Assembly (NCBI GenBank): GCA_038999435.1
Contig: JAVZYR010000005.1
Location: 1-25,574 of the forward strand
DNA from: Candidatus Aenigmatarchaeota archaeon
GTDB taxonomy: Archaea > Aenigmatarchaeota > Aenigmatarchaeia > QMZP01
DNA length: 25,574 nucleotides
Direction of reading: 5' to 3'
Below, in pieces: positions 7,348 through 13,875 of the stretch. How positions within the stretch are numbered: the first letter of the stretch is position 1; the number at the start of each line of letters is the position of its first letter. The translations under genes and the position numbers were made by a program. The notes below the pieces were generated by a model. That model was not told the origin of the DNA. It saw only the letters and a program-made list of their open reading frames with translations, and did no database searches.

Positions 7348-8943
7348 ATGAAAAAGTTCGTCCTGTTCATCTTCCTTTTGCTTGTCCCACTTGCTTCGGC
7401 CGCAAACTATACAGTCTGCTCATCAGGCTGCGATTATGACAACCTGACAGCATGCCTTTTTGCAATAAATGATACAAATAATACATGTATAATTGATGAA
7501 CAGGGCTATTGGGCAATAGATGGCAGTTATGTTTTTAGAGCAAGATCACCAATATCTGGCTTTATAACAACGAATAAAAGTGGAATTATACTTGATTGTA
7601 ATCTTAGCCTTATAAACGGCACATACAACAACATAGCAATTTATGTCAAAACGAATATCACAATCACAAACTGCAACATTTCAAATTTTGATACTTATAT
7701 ACAATGTGGTACCAATGAATGCTACTATGTCAATTTAAAAAATTGTACATTTCTTCATACCCGTCTTGAATGGGGAGAAGTTATAGTCGGCCTAAGAAAT
7801 TCATCGTTTTATAACAATAAAATATCAGGACAGCTTTTATTTTCTTTTGGTCCTTATAATAACATAACTCACAATGTCTTTGAAAATATTGTTTACTTTG
7901 GTGGTTTTCCTAGCTATTGTGAAATAAGGGATAATTTTATATCTGCTCGACAGGTCTCTTCTGGAAGATGGCCAAGTAACATAGTTATTCAAAATAACAC
8001 CTTTGTTATGTTAGAAGGATATCCAAATCATTTTACAATACAAAATTCAACTATACAAAACAATACGTTTGACTTTAATGATACGTCAAATGAAATTTGT
8101 TTTTTAAACTCAAACATATTTGGGAATGTTTTTGCAAACGGTTCAACATGGTATCAATATGCTATTTGCAAAAACAACACATACATAGACAATAAATTTT
8201 ACAACATCGATATGCAAAATTACGAAAATCTTTCTGTATTCTACAATAACACATTTGAAATGTCAAAACTAAACATAAATGCAACGAGAACAAACATTAC
8301 GTTAAATTTCTATAATTCCTCTTTGCTTAATCTCACAGGTGAGCAAAATGCATTTTGGCTTAACATATTTTACAACACAAGTATTTTAGATAATGCACAG
8401 AGCACTGCATACTGTATAGATAACAAAGGCAATCTTTATGAAGAAAGCCTAACACCCATGCCAGGTGACTGCGGGCCTGCAAATTTTACATATGTCAAGG
8501 AAAGATATTATAATACTGTTGGTCTTGCATGGCGAGAACAGTCAAGCCCAAGGAATGTAAGATATGATATATTTCTGAAAAATGAATGGGGAAAGAGATA
8601 TCACATAGCAACAACAAATTTAACAAATTGGACAGGCCCTGTTACTGTACCTGCAGGAAATTATACCGCTCTTCTTGTGCCATGGATTGAGGGCTCAAGG
8701 ATAAATGCAACAAACATCGAATCACAACAATTTGAAATCATACCTGTTCAGACAATGCAGTTTATAATGAAGTTTAACAACAGCGCTGCATGGGTATGGA
8801 AAGGAGAACAGGTTAGGGCATCTGAGCTTGGGCCTGTTTCAAAAGTTTACAACATACCATTCCTTGCAACATGGCTAAATAGCCTTTATGGTATGATTTT
8901 TGTAGGAAATGTGTTTGATTATTTTGCAGCCGGTATTGTTTGA
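7348..8943 (+). CDS. Secreted/surface glycoprotein with right-handed beta-helix (NosD/pectin-lyase-like) repeats and a probable FN3-like domain
   Basis: Signal peptide MKKFVLFIFLLLVPLASA, N-terminal VCSSGCDY..L.A cap motif, repeated I.NN.F / I.NC.I units, about 30 N-x-S/T sequons, and an FN3-like LAW...YDI...YT pattern. Confidence 0.7.
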   Translation: MKKFVLFIFLLLVPLASAANYTVCSSGCDYDNLTACLFAINDTNNTCIIDEQGYWAIDGSYVFRARSPISGFITTNKSGIILDCNLSLINGTYNNIAIYVKTNITITNCNISNFDTYIQCGTNECYYVNLKNCTFLHTRLEWGEVIVGLRNSSFYNNKISGQLLFSFGPYNNITHNVFENIVYFGGFPSYCEIRDNFISARQVSSGRWPSNIVIQNNTFVMLEGYPNHFTIQNSTIQNNTFDFNDTSNEICFLNSNIFGNVFANGSTWYQYAICKNNTYIDNKFYNIDMQNYENLSVFYNNTFEMSKLNINATRTNITLNFYNSSLLNLTGEQNAFWLNIFYNTSILDNAQSTAYCIDNKGNLYEESLTPMPGDCGPANFTYVKERYYNTVGLAWREQSSPRNVRYDIFLKNEWGKRYHIATTNLTNWTGPVTVPAGNYTALLVPWIEGSRINATNIESQQFEIIPVQTMQFIMKFNNSAAWVWKGEQVRASELGPVSKVYNIPFLATWLNSLYGMIFVGNVFDYFAAGIV

Positions 8944-9680
8944 TTTTCAAGAGCAAGCCTGATATGTGTGATGTCCTTATAACTTTTTCCTGCGAGCCTT
9001 GGTTCATATTTCTTTAAAAGCTTGAATCCTGCTATGTCAAGTTTGACTGCATCAGGCCCTGCCAACATCCATCCAGGTCTAATGATAATCCCTCCATGCC
9101 TCACCTCGTTTGCACTTCGATAGCTTTCTACAAAGTCCATTATTGTTAGATTGGGTGGACAGATTTTGTTCAGCTGTGCTATTACTTTGTGTATATTCAT
9201 AAGACCTATATGGCATGCAATCCTTTGCCTGTTTGCAAGAAGCCCAAACTGATTCTTCAGCGCACCTGTCAGGCCTGTATCTGGGTGGCTTTTCAGCACA
9301 GGCAAGGAGATGTAAAAATCACATTCGAATGGAAGGGCTGATATCTTAAGCCTGTCAATCTTTTTGAAGGGCTGCTTGTGCAGATTTAGCAATTTTATAT
9401 TAAAATCTTTACATACTTTTTGCAAAGGATGATTTTGTATTATCTTTTCTGCATTTCCTGCATCTGGCGCAGGCCCATCGGCAACAACAATTTCACAACC
9501 AAGTCTTTGCAGAGTCTTTATTATAGTTGCCAATACATCAGGATGCGTGGTTGTAGGATATGGCTCAAAGCTGACGATGTTCGGCTTGACAAAAATCTTT
9601 CTGCCTTTTACACTTTGCTTAAATCTCATCAAAACATTATTTGCAAATCTAATTCTGTTAGAGGTCTTTTCAATCCACAT
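8919..9680 (-). CDS. DUF362 domain protein
   Basis: IFVKPNIV..TTHPDV, VVADG, ISLPVLKSH..TGLTGALKNQFG and LTIMD. Start set at ATG 9680; the ORF-track start at 9695 is TTG. Confidence 0.85.
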   Translation of the reverse strand: MWIEKTSNRIRFANNVLMRFKQSVKGRKIFVKPNIVSFEPYPTTTHPDVLATIIKTLQRLGCEIVVADGPAPDAGNAEKIIQNHPLQKVCKDFNIKLLNLHKQPFKKIDRLKISALPFECDFYISLPVLKSHPDTGLTGALKNQFGLLANRQRIACHIGLMNIHKVIAQLNKICPPNLTIMDFVESYRSANEVRHGGIIIRPGWMLAGPDAVKLDIAGFKLLKKYEPRLAGKSYKDITHIRLALENQTIPAAK

Positions 9681-9725
9681 TTTTATTATTATCAAAAAAC
9701 TTTAATCAGTTTAACAATCTCAAGT

Positions 9726-11801
9726 ATGGATATCATTAAGCAAGTTTTGGCTCTAAGCGGTTACAAAAGCCTGAACCCTCTTCAAAGATTGGCTATAGAT
9801 GCTGGTTTACTTGGAGATAAAAATCTTGTGGTTGCAGCACCAACAGCATCTGGGAAGACGCTTATAGCAGAGATTGCTGCGCTCAAAACTATAAAAGAAG
9901 GAAAAAAGGTTGTTTATATCGTTCCCTTGCGTGCGCTTGCATCAGAAAAATACAACGAGTTTAGGCAAAAGTACAGCAACATTGGAATAAAGATTGCAAT
10001 AAGCATCGGTGATTATGACTCGGCAGATCCATGGCTTGCTGATTATGATATGATAATCGTGACATCTGAAAAACTCGATTCATTGCTTAGACATAGAGCG
10101 CCATGGATAGTTGATATCGGGCTTGTGATTGCCGATGAGATACATCTTTTAAATAGCCCTGATAGAGGACCAACCTTGGAGATGATAATAACAAGGTTAA
10201 GAGATGTCGCAAATCCGAGAATCCTTGCGCTCTCAGCAACGATTAGCAATTACAAAGAGCTTGCTGGTTGGCTCAATGCAGCTGTTGTGAAATCTGATTG
10301 GAGACCTGTTAAGTTGTATAGAGGTATCTGTTATGATTATAAAATTAGTTTCGAGCATGATAAGGAGATAGAGCTCGACCAACAATATCCCCAACTAATC
10401 TCTCTTGTTCTCGATACATTGGCTGCAAAAAAACAGATACTTATATTTTTGTCAACACGCAAGTCAGCCGAAGCAGCTGCAGAAAGCATAGGAAAGGCAA
10501 TAAAACTGAGTTCACCTGAGTTAGAGAAACTTGCAAAAAACATAGAAGGTGTGCTTGAAAGGCCAACAAAACAATGCCATAGATTGGCTGCATGCATAAG
10601 GAATGGTACTGCATTCCATCATGCAGGCCTTGTTGCTGAGCAAAGAAGGCTTATAGAGGATGCATTTAGAGATGGGCTAATAAAAGTAATTGCAGCAACA
10701 CCAACATTGGCAGCAGGGATAAACATGCCTGCATTTCGCGTTGTGATTAGGGACCTTCGGCGATTTAGCCATTATCATGGCCTTTCATGGATACCTGTTC
10801 TTGAGATTGAACAGATGATGGGACGGGCAGGAAGGCCTCAATATGACAGCGAGGGCCAAGCAATACTGCTTGCAAAGGATAGAGGGGAGGCAAGATTTGC
10901 ATGGGAGAATTACATAAAAGGAGAGCCTGAGAGGATAACATCAAAGCTTGGGCTCGAGCCTATACTAAGGATGCACATGCTTGCGCTGATTGCATCATCA
11001 GGTGTAATTACATGGGATGAGATTGTCACATTTTTTTCAAAAACATTCTATGCACATCAGTACAAGGACATCTCACGGCTCGAGAATATACTAAAAAAGA
11101 TTTTGAGGCTTCTTGAGGGCTTTGGTTTCATTAAGGTTGGTGAAAGAATATCTGCAACGGCTATTGGTCGGCGTGTCTCAGAACTTTACATAGACCCACT
11201 TACAGCAGACAGGCTTATAAAAGGGCTGAAAAGGCTTAAAAGCCCTCCTGATATAGCTTTGCTTTATCTTCTTTCAGATTGCCTTGAGATGCAACCTGGC
11301 CTTTCTCCAAGAAAAAGGGAACTAAAAGAGATACTTGATATTGCAGAAAAATATGAAGGATGGTTGCCCAAAATTGAGCCATGGGAGATTGAATATGATG
11401 ATTTTCTGAGAAGCCTGAAACTTGCACTTATGCTGAATAATTGGATAGATGAGATGGGAGAGGATGCGCTGCTTGAAAGATTTGGCATCACGCCAGGCGA
11501 GCTTCGTGGTCGACTTGAGATTGCTGATTGGCTCTGCTATGCTGCAGGTGAACTTGGGCTGTTGCTTGGAATGTGGGACCAGATAAAGGCTATGCGAAAG
11601 CTGAGGATAAGGTTGCAGTATGGCGTTAAAGAAGAACTTCTACCACTTGTCAGGCTAAAGGGCATAGGTCGTGTGCGTGCGAGGCTGCTCTACAATGCAG
11701 GGCTTAAAAGGATTGCCGATTTGAGAAAGGCATCCGTGGAAAGCCTTGAACGGTTGCTCGGGCCAAGTCTTGCAAGGGATATTAAAGCGCAAGTTGGTTA
11801 A
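9726..11801 (+). CDS. hel308: Ski2-like SF2 DNA helicase Hel308/Hjm
   Basis: APTASGKT, DEIH, LSAT, AFHHAGL, TPTLAAGINMPA, QMMGRAGRP, and a C-terminal HhH with the RAR motif (GIGRVRAR). True start taken as ATG 9726 (MDIIKQ). Confidence 0.95.
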   Translation: MDIIKQVLALSGYKSLNPLQRLAIDAGLLGDKNLVVAAPTASGKTLIAEIAALKTIKEGKKVVYIVPLRALASEKYNEFRQKYSNIGIKIAISIGDYDSADPWLADYDMIIVTSEKLDSLLRHRAPWIVDIGLVIADEIHLLNSPDRGPTLEMIITRLRDVANPRILALSATISNYKELAGWLNAAVVKSDWRPVKLYRGICYDYKISFEHDKEIELDQQYPQLISLVLDTLAAKKQILIFLSTRKSAEAAAESIGKAIKLSSPELEKLAKNIEGVLERPTKQCHRLAACIRNGTAFHHAGLVAEQRRLIEDAFRDGLIKVIAATPTLAAGINMPAFRVVIRDLRRFSHYHGLSWIPVLEIEQMMGRAGRPQYDSEGQAILLAKDRGEARFAWENYIKGEPERITSKLGLEPILRMHMLALIASSGVITWDEIVTFFSKTFYAHQYKDISRLENILKKILRLLEGFGFIKVGERISATAIGRRVSELYIDPLTADRLIKGLKRLKSPPDIALLYLLSDCLEMQPGLSPRKRELKEILDIAEKYEGWLPKIEPWEIEYDDFLRSLKLALMLNNWIDEMGEDALLERFGITPGELRGRLEIADWLCYAAGELGLLLGMWDQIKAMRKLRIRLQYGVKEELLPLVRLKGIGRVRARLLYNAGLKRIADLRKASVESLERLLGPSLARDIKAQVG

Positions 11802-12703
11802 ACCTCATATGCGAGCTGTATTCCTCTTGGGTTGAAAAATCCTCTTCGTCCTCTTGAAATAGCTTTGTACTCATCAAGGACAAAGCTTGCCTGTCCTACT
11901 TCGCTTATTCCTAAATTATCTAACATGTCTTGGATAGGGTCAAAAGTGGTATCTATCATGTCATAGTATAGATCTCCAAATTTCCAATAAGCATATGTCA
12001 TAAGTTTGTTAGGTCTGCCATATACATTAACCTTCCAATTTGTGCCATCATCAAGGGTTATAGTTTTGCTATCAATAACAGGGCCGTATTGTTGCATAAG
12101 CCATGTCTCATCCCTTACAAATCTTTCAAGAAATGCATATTCTAAGATTTCAACCCCAGAACCATAATCTAATCTCGTGTACTTTTTAGCTGCAAGATGT
12201 GTAAAGGGTCCATTAATGTATTTGTTTAATTTGCTTTCAATCCTTGGCACACCTTTTGTTGGTGTCCAGTATGGTGATTTGTTGTTTTTTATAACAAATT
12301 CTATACCCTTTTTAAGCTCTTCATCTGTCGGACCTTGCTCTGTAGCATACGATTTTAAGTATATTGGAACTTCAGCCCCGTTATATTCAACCGTGTACAA
12401 CTCTCTGATTGTTGTCGCACCATTTGAGAAGTCCAGCTCAATCATGAGACCTGGGGCAATCTTTCTTGGTAATGTTTTATATTTTTGTCTATACAGCTCG
12501 GTCCAGCTATCCAATAGACCACCTATTATATCACTTGCTAAATTCTTTCTTTTTTCCTCAGGTATATTGATTTTTTCTAATAATTTGTGACCAGCATAGT
12601 AAACAGGCAGTTTCCATACATTGCCTATCTCATCTAAATTTACAAGTGGGTTTTCATCTTTGAATCTTCTATATTCAGCCCATCTATCCCTTTTCATACT
12701 CAT
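11798..12703 (-). CDS. Hypothetical protein (301 aa), third gene of an accessory operon
   Basis: Long ORF with soluble-protein composition. ATGA overlap with the upstream gene; shares TTAA with the hel308 stop. No recognisable family motif. Confidence 0.8.
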   Translation of the reverse strand: MSMKRDRWAEYRRFKDENPLVNLDEIGNVWKLPVYYAGHKLLEKINIPEEKRKNLASDIIGGLLDSWTELYRQKYKTLPRKIAPGLMIELDFSNGATTIRELYTVEYNGAEVPIYLKSYATEQGPTDEELKKGIEFVIKNNKSPYWTPTKGVPRIESKLNKYINGPFTHLAAKKYTRLDYGSGVEILEYAFLERFVRDETWLMQQYGPVIDSKTITLDDGTNWKVNVYGRPNKLMTYAYWKFGDLYYDMIDTTFDPIQDMLDNLGISEVGQASFVLDEYKAISRGRRGFFNPRGIQLAYEV

Positions 12704-13224
12704 CTCAGAACCTCTCTCACTTTTTCAACAAGTTCTGGGTAAAGCCTTTTGTAATTTTCGAATGCATCTTTTATCCATGGTGCATATTTTATAACCCTTG
12801 CGCTAAAATCATAACCAAAGCCCTGCTCTTCAAGATTTATGCCATGATATATCACACCAAAGATTTTTTCATCTTCGCTATTTTCAAGATATTCTGCTTC
12901 GAGCCTTGCATGCTCTTCTTCATTTTTAAATTCATGGTCTGTAAATCTCCTTCCAAACCACTCAACATAGAGCTCATGCCCAAGAACATATGCCTTTATA
13001 CCATCAACCACAGGCTTGAGGTTTTTATCATATTTCAGAGCTGAGATATAAATAATGCCATTTTCTGGATCTGTATAACCAAGATAAGAACCCAAGGAAT
13101 CTTGGTCAACCTCTTTTATAATTGGATCGCGCGGTATTTCCTCTTTGTTGTTAAAATACCATACATTTCCATGTGGGTCAACCCAACCTTTCTTCCATTC
13201 CAAATTTTGTTTTTGCCTTTTCAT
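12700..13224 (-). CDS. Hypothetical protein, possible zincin-like metallopeptidase fold with a variant motif
   Basis: LGYT...IIYIS...YVLGHELYVE resembles the zincin strand-strand-helix core, but the second His of HExxH is absent. ATGA overlaps at both ends. Confidence 0.6.
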   Translation of the reverse strand: MKRQKQNLEWKKGWVDPHGNVWYFNNKEEIPRDPIIKEVDQDSLGSYLGYTDPENGIIYISALKYDKNLKPVVDGIKAYVLGHELYVEWFGRRFTDHEFKNEEEHARLEAEYLENSEDEKIFGVIYHGINLEEQGFGYDFSARVIKYAPWIKDAFENYKRLYPELVEKVREVLR

Positions 13225-13322
13225 ATCTTCCTCGGATAATCAAACCTCACCTTGCATCTTGGGCATGATTTTGGGCTTGCAATCCTTGCCTGCCATTCAT
13301 ATGAGCATTTAAAGCATTTCAT
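13221..13322 (-). CDS. C4 zinc-ribbon microprotein (33 aa; not in ORF track)
   Basis: Hand translation: MKCFKCSYEWQARIASPKSCPRCKVRFDYPRKI (CxxC-x13-CPxC). SD-like GGGAGTGA lies 5 nt upstream, and the stop overlaps the next ATG (ATGA). Confidence 0.8.
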   Translation of the reverse strand: MKCFKCSYEWQARIASPKSCPRCKVRFDYPRKI

Positions 13323-13347
13323 ATTTATCACTCCCTAATAGTAATAA

Positions 13348-13407
13348 TAATAGTAAGATTTATAAAGCTTTCGGTTTGTAATAGTAAGATTTATAAAGCT
13401 TTCGGTT
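13348..13407. repeat. Perfect 29-bp direct repeat, two copies, 31-bp period
   Basis: TAATAGTAAGATTTATAAAGCTTTCGGTT at 13348-13376 and 13379-13407, separated by TG. Confidence 0.97.
13359..13405 (-). promoter_or_regulatory. Two tandem archaeal BRE-TATA promoters upstream of the zinc-ribbon operon
   Basis: The minus strand of each repeat unit reads CCGAAAGC-TTTATAAA (BRE-like purine run followed by a TATA box). TATA boxes are at 13359-13366 and 13390-13397. The proximal one would start transcription just upstream of the SD at 13328-13335. Confidence 0.75.
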
Positions 13408-13422
13408 GGTTTTATCCCCTCT

Positions 13423-13875
13423 TCAAGGCCTATATTTATAAAAGATGCATGTTATCGCAATACCCATACCAGCACCTGCTAGCACATCATAAAAGGTGTG
13501 CACACCGAGTGCTAATCTTGATGCACAAACAAGCACTGGTATAATCAAAATGGGAATGATGCGAACATTTCTTTTAAGCAAAACCAATGGCAGGAACATA
13601 ATCCATACTGTGCCTGAATGACCTGAAGGGAAGCTTGCATCTGTCGGGCATAGCGGATTGCAGCCTTCAGCAGGGCATGGTATGCAGGGCCTGGGTATGG
13701 GAAGTAGGGATTTTATGACAAATGCTAGTAGAAGAAATGCTAAGATTGATGGGATGTATATCTTTGAGTAGCTTTTCAAAAATTGAGATTTTGTTACTTT
13801 GTATCCAATAACCAAAAATGGGATTAGCATTAACCCAAGTTCAGGCATGCCAATCCAACTTATCCACTCCCACAT
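13423..13875 (-). CDS. PAP2-family membrane phosphatase
   Basis: All three PAP2 motifs: KSLLPIPRP (Kx6RP), FPSGH and SRLALGVHTFYD (SRx5Hx3D); hydrophobic helices. Confidence 0.9.
   Translation of the reverse strand: MWEWISWIGMPELGLMLIPFLVIGYKVTKSQFLKSYSKIYIPSILAFLLLAFVIKSLLPIPRPCIPCPAEGCNPLCPTDASFPSGHSGTVWIMFLPLVLLKRNVRIIPILIIPVLVCASRLALGVHTFYDVLAGAGMGIAITCIFYKYRP

Follow-up and report, generated by a model that had tools for sequence, protein, structure and literature searches.

A predicted zincin-fold protein and its operon partner form a conserved gene pair in one order of Aenigmatarchaeota

We analyzed a stretch of DNA from a Candidatus Aenigmatarchaeota archaeon (assembly GCA_038999435.1, contig JAVZYR010000005.1, positions 1-25,574), which is 25,574 nucleotides (nt) long and is referred to below as the window. 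On its minus strand lie three open reading frames (ORFs) of 33, 174 and 301 amino acids (aa), chained by stop/start overlaps of sequence ATGA at 13224-13221 (33-aa/174-aa) and 12703-12700 (174-aa/301-aa), which together form a real, translationally coupled operon. Comparison across the phylum suggests that the second and third genes are an old, vertically inherited pair of one Aenigmatarchaeota order. The 174-aa protein is predicted to have a zincin-type fold with a changed metal motif, and the 301-aa protein yields a confident structural model for which no relative was detected. The features of the locus are as follows.

13221..13322, minus strand: 33-aa zinc-ribbon ORF, CxxC-x13-CxxC (from translation)
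12700..13224, minus strand: gene for the 174-aa predicted zincin-fold protein (family profiles, structure model, column counts)
11798..12703, minus strand: gene for the 301-aa protein (family profiles, structure model)
11798..11801: TTAA common to the convergent stops of the 301-aa gene and hel308, which ends at 11801 (sequence reading)
13327..13335, minus strand: Shine-Dalgarno-like GGGAGTGAT, 8 nt 5' of the first ATG (sequence reading)
13348..13409, minus strand: tandem 31-nt duplication, putative operon promoter, with one AAAGCTTTATAAAT per copy resembling a B recognition element and TATA box
13423..13875, minus strand: gene for a PAP2 membrane phosphatase, directly upstream of the operon (PF01569, E 3.5e-20)
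9720..11801, plus strand: gene for a Hel308-type helicase, convergent with the operon (DEAD and Helicase_dom4_arc domains)

Operon anatomy

Besides the Shine-Dalgarno-like sequence upstream of the first ATG, the starts of the 174-aa and 301-aa genes also have stretches ahead of them that resemble GAGGA and GAGAGG. The two 31-nt copies upstream (13348-13378 and 13379-13409) are 97% identical, and the 14-mer AAAGCTTTATAAAT has exactly two copies in the window, one in each repeat. Both repeats are spanned without a difference by a 62-nt contig from the best-matching public sequencing run (X1). The duplicated element probably serves as the promoter of the operon. The three ORFs, their overlaps, a Shine-Dalgarno sequence of their own, the duplicated promoter-like element and the TTAA shared with the hel308 stop were all present as the initial annotation of this DNA had described them.

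The 174-aa and 301-aa ORFs are real genes because relatives exist in other genomes. The 33-aa ORF is taken as real because of its signals, its translational coupling and a covering contig from a close strain. Public runs with matching sequence comprised four DNA runs, all from one hot-spring metagenome study, with no RNA run among them.

The 174-aa protein

The 174-aa protein matched no Pfam family at E ≤ 1 and nothing significant in NCBIfam, PHROGs or PADLOC, where the only row was a non-significant 15.3-bit "2TM effector"; no operon protein had a PHROG match below E 0.027. The best result against PDB sequence profiles was an unrelated chain at E 0.22. A word-indexed search of 5.8 billion proteins returned a single 90%-identical match, labeled Candidatus Aenigmatarchaeota, and the family profile gathered nine proteins through the same index, none with a Pfam domain and the named ones all hypothetical. 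A pattern search of genome contigs with this protein gave 41 pattern matches, of which none was confirmed. Protein-atlas neighbors scored 0.90 or less and are leads only: unnamed viral clusters (0.90), LPD23, DUF3920 and SprT-like proteins.

Relatives of 185-287 aa stand upstream of nearly every 301-aa homologue and share the pattern Y-x3-H-E-x2-E ... (D/E)-H-x3-E (alignments A1, A2 and A4). Judged by these searches, the 174-aa protein founds a small family outside the described ones. Five of the 15 family members aligned in A2 end in Ala-Ala.

The window protein reads H83-E84-L-Y-V-E88, an HExxxE arrangement where most of the family has HExxE, and lacks HExxH. Across 23 family members, the conserved columns are H83 (22/23), E84 (23/23), H105 (21/23) and E109 (21/23). 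At +4, the place of the second His in HExxH, 18/23 have Glu, while 5/23, the window protein among them, have Val followed by Glu at +5. One homologue (genome G034; genome handles are ours) carries a classical HExxH. H105 and E109, candidates for the third metal ligand that zincins carry as Glu or His about 20-25 residues downstream on the next helix, lie at +22 and +26 from H83, both on one helix of the predicted structure.

That structure was modeled with a predicted local distance difference test score (pLDDT) of 82.3 and a predicted template modeling score (pTM) of 0.77. A disordered N-terminus is followed by strands 35-39, 49-52 and 57-61, a helix (67-93) bearing H83-E84 and E88, a second helix (102-115) bearing H105 and E109, and four further helices. 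The protein is cytoplasmic and soluble, with a maximum 19-residue hydropathy of 0.61.

Foldseek found no match to this model at E ≤ 0.001 (best E 0.63; top rows ArdC, selecase and PprI). In VIA, a structure search independent of Foldseek, 39 of the 50 matches listed were metallopeptidases by title, with Z of 3.3-5.6 in a range (Z < 8) where a match can reflect merely a common arrangement. The top match had Z 5.6, a root-mean-square deviation (rmsd) of 3.7 and 139 aligned residues. M1 aminopeptidases and LTA4 hydrolase scored Z 5.0-5.6 and BepA Z 5.1, and the matches also included DPP III, collagenases, Spartan, PprI, CapP, Ste24, BlaR1, Wss1 and thermolysin. Minigluzincins were present as selecase (4qhj; Z 4.9, rmsd 3.6, 85 aligned residues, 20% identity), abylysin (Z 4.7) and jannalysin (Z 4.5), and IrrE/PprI (Z 4.2-4.5) and CapP (Z 4.2) scored no better than the M1 aminopeptidases or selecase. 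The Z values are low, yet the match list is one-sided, and we therefore accept a zincin (minigluzincin-like) fold class for the modeled 174-aa protein, an assignment that does not prove homology. At the level of fold, this backs the initial call of a variant zincin-like protein.

The 301-aa protein

Searches with the 301-aa protein gave nothing significant in Pfam, NCBIfam or PHROGs, and PADLOC returned no row for it or for the 33-aa peptide. PDB sequence profiles gave nothing, the protein atlas nothing usable, and the index of 5.8 billion proteins the self match alone. A family profile searched against 1.84 billion representatives reached 120 clusters at E ≤ 1e-3, of which 72 had E ≤ 1e-30. 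The initial annotation had recognized no core archaeal family among the three proteins, and for the 174-aa and 301-aa proteins the searches agree with it.

The model of the 301-aa protein (pLDDT 95.0, pTM 0.90) is that of a soluble cytoplasmic alpha/beta protein with a helical hairpin (26-82), beta-hairpins at 99-118 and 209-229, and long helices. Foldseek against PDB and BFVD gave no match at E ≤ 0.001 (best template modeling scores 0.11-0.19). In both VIA runs alignment was confined to the hairpin, which matched generic coiled coils (Z about 7), and residues 88-301 were barely probed; we therefore do not claim a new fold, just that no relative was found. A candidate kinship with encapsulin or the HK97 capsid had no corresponding row in Foldseek against PDB, in BFVD or in VIA, whose lists were filled by the hairpin. 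An internal duplication of two helix/beta-hairpin/helix units was considered, and hhalign detected none. A complex prediction for the 301-aa and 174-aa proteins scored 0.00, below the mark and run without controls, and carries no weight either way.

At the C-terminus, 17 of the 88 members of the 301-aa family (alignment A3) end in Ala-Ala, and Tyr is penultimate in 19 of 88. A loose C-terminal aromatic motif, enriched in family tails (63/88, against 24% of background windows), was set aside as too unspecific.

Distribution and synteny

Six-frame searches of 41 related genomes gave 14 genomes with the 301-aa protein and 6 with the 174-aa protein, and 16 loci from these genomes were inspected. 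Family profiles run over 301 genomes of the phylum detected the 301-aa protein in 28, with 11/34, 3/3, 7/23 and 6/11 in four families of one order and 0/229 elsewhere. The 174-aa protein was detected in 23 genomes (19/34 and 3/3 in two of these families, 0/263 elsewhere). The surveyed genomes are 58-98% complete, so that a profile miss is no proof of absence. Both genes are present in 11 genomes, the 174-aa family alone in 12 and the 301-aa family alone in 17, and each gene is single-copy per genome in both tblastn-type and profile surveys.

Where both occur, the two genes are neighbors on one strand in 11/11 genomes. Among the inspected loci the pair is directly adjacent in 10/13 and separated by one to three genes in 3/13. 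Within the window's family, 10 genomes representing 9 genera have hel308 beside the pair, 6 genomes have PAP2 beside it and 5 have infB, with PAP2 and/or infB on the side opposite hel308 wherever the contig extends far enough. By tblastn, these neighbors are much better conserved in relatives (hel308 52-73% identity, infB 54-59%) than the 301-aa protein (24-32%). A fixed place between such neighbors argues for vertical inheritance of a fast-evolving pair rather than an inserted island, and the 174-aa and 301-aa genes would accordingly be an old pair of this order. The initial annotation had also raised the case of known housekeeping families conserved here in all relatives; the locus is indeed conserved in many of them, but the pair belongs to no known family and the profiles detect its members in 11 (301-aa) and 19 (174-aa) of the 34 genomes of the window's family.

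In six relatives (loci L018, L019, L021, L022, L023 and L035) a DUF192 gene (110-135 aa) separates hel308 from the pair; it is missing there in the window, in which the 301-aa gene abuts hel308. In G010 (L022), the zincin-like gene and the 301-aa homologue have a gene for a GT2 glycosyltransferase inserted between them (1654-2445; PF00535, E 1e-29), and in G002 a BacA/UppP gene is found near the pair.

At some loci the 174-aa family occurs alone, and its gene is followed there by one for a protein of 340 aa (G014, L035), 263 aa (the same-genus G001, L028), 207 aa (G012, L042) or 150 aa (G007, L029). The 340-aa protein was found in 1 of the 41 genomes searched. Compared with the 301-aa family by hhalign, the G001 protein reached a probability of 30% and those of G014 and G012 gave no match; the G014 and G001 proteins matched each other at BLASTP E 0.001. 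In profile searches the 301-aa family outscores the 174-aa family where both occur, so where it has vanished beside a still detectable zincin-like gene, replacement or a burst of change seems likelier than steady drift.

A linked membrane-gene cluster

In a sister family (G027, G031, G034, G037), as well as in G009 and G298, the next gene after the 301-aa gene encodes a multi-pass membrane protein, here called TMcc, which has a Gly-rich linker and ends in a coiled coil. In several of these loci TMcc is followed in turn by TM4, encoding a membrane protein of about 145 aa. A comparison of coordinates placed the 301-aa gene directly beside TMcc in 16 of the 28 genomes with a match, and in 14 of the 16 genomes with a match outside the window's family. 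TMcc has a far wider range than the pair (161/301 phylum genomes by profile), and its protein matched nothing among PDB sequence profiles. This gene order indicates that the pair ancestrally headed a cluster with TMcc and TM4. Together with the recurrent placement beside hel308 and PAP2, it speaks against the initial description of the operon as a self-contained accessory unit.

In other families of the class, small HExxH proteins with weak M48/M78 matches (E about 2e-3) are encoded just upstream of TMcc (G099, G052), and G130 has a small protein with HExxxH in this place. What these proteins appear to share with the 174-aa family is position and motif alone.

The cluster itself is conserved well beyond the order, and its members have no family match (loci L044, L015, L016, L025-L027 and L036-L043). 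They comprise TMcc, the membrane protein of about 145 aa, two to four paralogous membrane proteins of 160-185 aa, a protein of 214-365 aa and one of 128-153 aa. Sub-threshold Pfam rows of coiled-coil type were seen for just one homologue of the 214-365-aa protein. The cluster is often found beside a small HExxH protein gene and, in some families, beside a TP_methylase (diphthine-synthase-like) gene.

The zinc ribbon and variation at the operon head

The 33-aa peptide is basic (isoelectric point, pI, 9.8) with two CxxC pairs, and its Pfam matches to zinc ribbons and treble clefs are all sub-threshold (best E 8.9e-4). Of 15 loci, that of the window alone has a CxxC..CxxC ORF ahead of the zincin-like gene and on the strand of the operon. 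Neither a helix-turn-helix (HTH) gene nor any other DNA-binding gene substitutes for it. The conserved pair therefore functions elsewhere without a zinc ribbon, and the ribbon is probably a recent, lineage-specific addition at the operon head, outside the conserved module. Of the trio whose co-occurrence the initial annotation had put in question, the 174-aa and 301-aa genes keep together and the zinc ribbon does not. In G007 the zincin-like gene has an unrelated Cys-rich ORF of 80 aa upstream, and the 301-aa/TMcc/TM4 gene series of G031 and G034 is interrupted by a small zinc ribbon of another kind.

Contigs of related strains, from three runs of the hot-spring study, track the window through the 33-aa gene and diverge at 13328-13331, between the promoter repeats and the Shine-Dalgarno sequence, with up to 221 unlike letters beyond. 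This position implies a different sequence between PAP2 and the operon in those strains. One such contig lacks one of the 31-nt copies, a weak observation with 20 letters on the shorter side. Three indels fall in the N-terminal part of the 174-aa gene, all multiples of three. Taken together, divergence at the head and in-frame indels indicate that the operon head varies among strains while reading frames are kept.

Interpretation

The reading that we prefer, with moderate confidence, is that this coupled operon carries an old pair in which a peptidase or pseudopeptidase acts with its downstream partner, probably at the membrane and in a setting of envelope biogenesis. The 174-aa protein would hold a metal via His83, one neighboring Glu and either His105 or Glu109, and Glu84 would act as general base. 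The protein could cleave, trim or hold the 301-aa product, or a client that this product presents, and the site of action may be the cytoplasmic face of the TMcc/TM4 membrane proteins. A setting of membrane or envelope biogenesis, rather than defense, is hinted at by PAP2, by BacA (G002), by the GT2 gene (G010) and by SecD, which lies near TMcc.

Several observations weigh against this proposal. The fold matches are weak in absolute terms, whether by Z (at most 5.6) or by the best Foldseek E value (0.63). HExxH is absent from the 174-aa protein, with Glu at +5 instead of +4 in 5/23 members; because the defining motif is missing, the protein may be inactive or metal-free. Aligned by hhalign with the HExxH proteins beside TMcc, the 174-aa family gave probabilities of 1.3% and 0.15%, that is, no similarity. 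The pair and TMcc/TM4 occupy separate contigs of the genome that contains the window, the latter lying on contig 3 (locus L044, 5076-6172) beside SecD and the gene of a 1121-aa surface protein. The distribution is patchy within the window's family, where the profiles missed the genes in many fairly complete genomes. Finally, where the 174-aa gene stands alone (G014, G012, G007 and also G001), its partners are unrelated or unrecognizable and genus-specific.

A second explanation, somewhat unlikely in our judgment, is that catalysis by the 174-aa protein was lost as HExxH decayed and that both proteins are now structural or adaptor subunits of a TMcc/TM4 membrane apparatus. The inconsistent placement of the replacement Glu, at +4 in 18/23 and at +5 in 5/23, would fit such decay. 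The strong positional link between the 301-aa gene and TMcc also favors this explanation, as do the long 301-aa hairpin, of a coiled-coil-pairing kind, and the coiled-coil tail of TMcc. However, 21-23 of 23 members retain H83, E84, H105 and E109, beyond the needs of a decayed site, and one member has a full HExxH. Moreover, zinc sites built from His, Glu and His occur in active peptidases such as the M14 carboxypeptidases.

The idea can also be extended in a bolder and plainly unlikely direction, in which the pair is the cytoplasmic head of an undescribed, class-wide DPANN membrane apparatus comprising TMcc, TM4 and paralogous small membrane and coiled-coil proteins. The zincin, with HExxH elsewhere and HExxE here, would process or load an interchangeable new-fold partner, maybe within the envelope or host-contact machinery of episymbionts.

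The initial annotation offered as a hypothesis a switch in which the zinc ribbon is a DNA-binding repressor that the zincin cuts, releasing the 301-aa protein as an effector in stress response, antiviral defense or a toxin-antitoxin system. We find this very doubtful. The zincin fold is supported and IrrE/PprI and CapP are among the matches, but neither outscores the M1 aminopeptidases or selecase, and no Peptidase_M78 match appeared even at E ≤ 1. The ribbon is basic, as noted above, but its confinement to a single locus, with no DNA-binding substitute, argues against its role as a stand-in repressor. The genus-specific proteins that replace the 301-aa gene in some relatives could resemble a variable effector slot, and related strains are rearranged at the operon head; against this, the locus is conserved and syntenic across genera, and in genomes with both proteins conservation is higher for the 301-aa protein than for the zincin-like one. 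The window annotation held no defense, integrase or phage genes, and the single 15-bit PADLOC row, together with the want of significant PHROG or BFVD matches and a guanine-plus-cytosine (GC) content near that of the window (0.369 for the operon, 0.382 for the window), gives no backing to the suggested defense or mobile character.

The operon is highly unlikely to be a relic of some mobile element, such as an integrated virus or plasmid, or a toxin-antitoxin pair that such an element carries: its genes are orphan-like (self or one close match in the index of 5.8 billion proteins), its GC is slightly below that of the flanking genes (0.42), its head varies at strain level and the atlas neighbors of the 174-aa protein are viral clusters at lead grade, but the same core-gene position recurs in 10 genomes of 9 genera, each gene is single-copy, the window annotation has no integrase, tRNA or repeat boundary, and neither PHROGs (below E 0.027) nor BFVD gave a match. 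On the sequence evidence, the pair looks like a lineage-specific cell component rather than a mobile defense island.

Relation to known systems

Among small proteins, the best structural matches of the 174-aa protein are the minigluzincins of Methanocaldococcus and Pyrococcus (selecase, jannalysin and abylysin; Z 4.5-4.9), likewise small soluble archaeal proteins in which a short sheet leads into an HE helix and then a ligand-bearing helix. Minigluzincins, however, are about 110 aa long and carry HExxH, whereas the 174-aa protein has HExx(x)E, four extra C-terminal helices and a disordered N-terminus. It also differs in having no sequence match in Pfam, NCBIfam or PDB profiles and in always being accompanied by a downstream partner gene.

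The ImmA/IrrE (M78) and CapP switches, with their partners ImmR, DdrO and CapH, are alike in combining, within one operon, a small zincin-fold protein and a small partner that may bind nucleic acid. Here, in contrast, the 174-aa protein matches no M78 profile and lacks an HTH partner, and the zinc ribbon is confined to the window. Unlike ImmA/IrrE and CapP/CBASS loci, this one has core-gene neighbors and no defense or mobile cargo, and its conserved partner is a protein of about 300 aa without a known fold.

The membrane gluzincins (M48 HtpX/Ste24/BepA and M56 BlaR1) have the zincin fold in common with the 174-aa protein (BepA Z 5.1, Ste24 Z 4.0-4.1, BlaR1 Z 3.7-4.0) and are functionally tied to membrane proteins, as the neighborhood suggests for the 174-aa protein. 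They possess transmembrane segments of their own and an intact HExxH, whereas the 174-aa protein is soluble and the membrane proteins beside its family are encoded by separate genes.

DPANN archaea are distinguished largely by protein families without predicted function, and many of their lineage-specific families are membrane-bound; one set, Module 128, consists of families confined to Aenigmarchaeota and wholly lacking functional prediction (Castelle et al. 2021, PMC8204110). The 174-aa and 301-aa families fit the description of Module 128, and the accessible part of that paper contains no fold, motif or gene-order analysis. Literature searches combining Aenigmarchaeota with zincin found no description of such a protein, and HEXXE combined with metallopeptidase gave only unrelated fungal M35 enzymes.

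The present analysis makes two function-less DPANN families concrete, one of them a predicted zincin-fold protein whose changed metal motif is open to mutagenesis. The 301-aa protein, with its confident model and no detected structural relative, is a good target for structure determination. Their conserved pairing and the positional tie to a class-wide membrane protein offer a testable entry into Aenigmatarchaeota cell biology, and a tempting but unsupported defense-system reading has been removed.

Flanking genes

By Pfam, the genes flanking the operon encode PAP2, IF-2/aIF5B domains and the Hel308-type helicase. The wider window is rich in core genes, including those for SRP54, aIF2-alpha, GINS, primase, proteasome, exosome, SepF and FttA. 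A 531-aa ORF (7348-8943, plus strand), located between the genes for a class I tRNA synthetase and a DUF362 protein, has no Pfam match at E ≤ 0.001. The mechanically called hel308 ORF has a TTG start at position 9420, which gives it an overlap with the DUF362 gene of the opposite strand (9420-9720). Relatives align only some 300 bases further in, from about 9735 of the query, so the true hel308 start is probably an internal ATG nearby.

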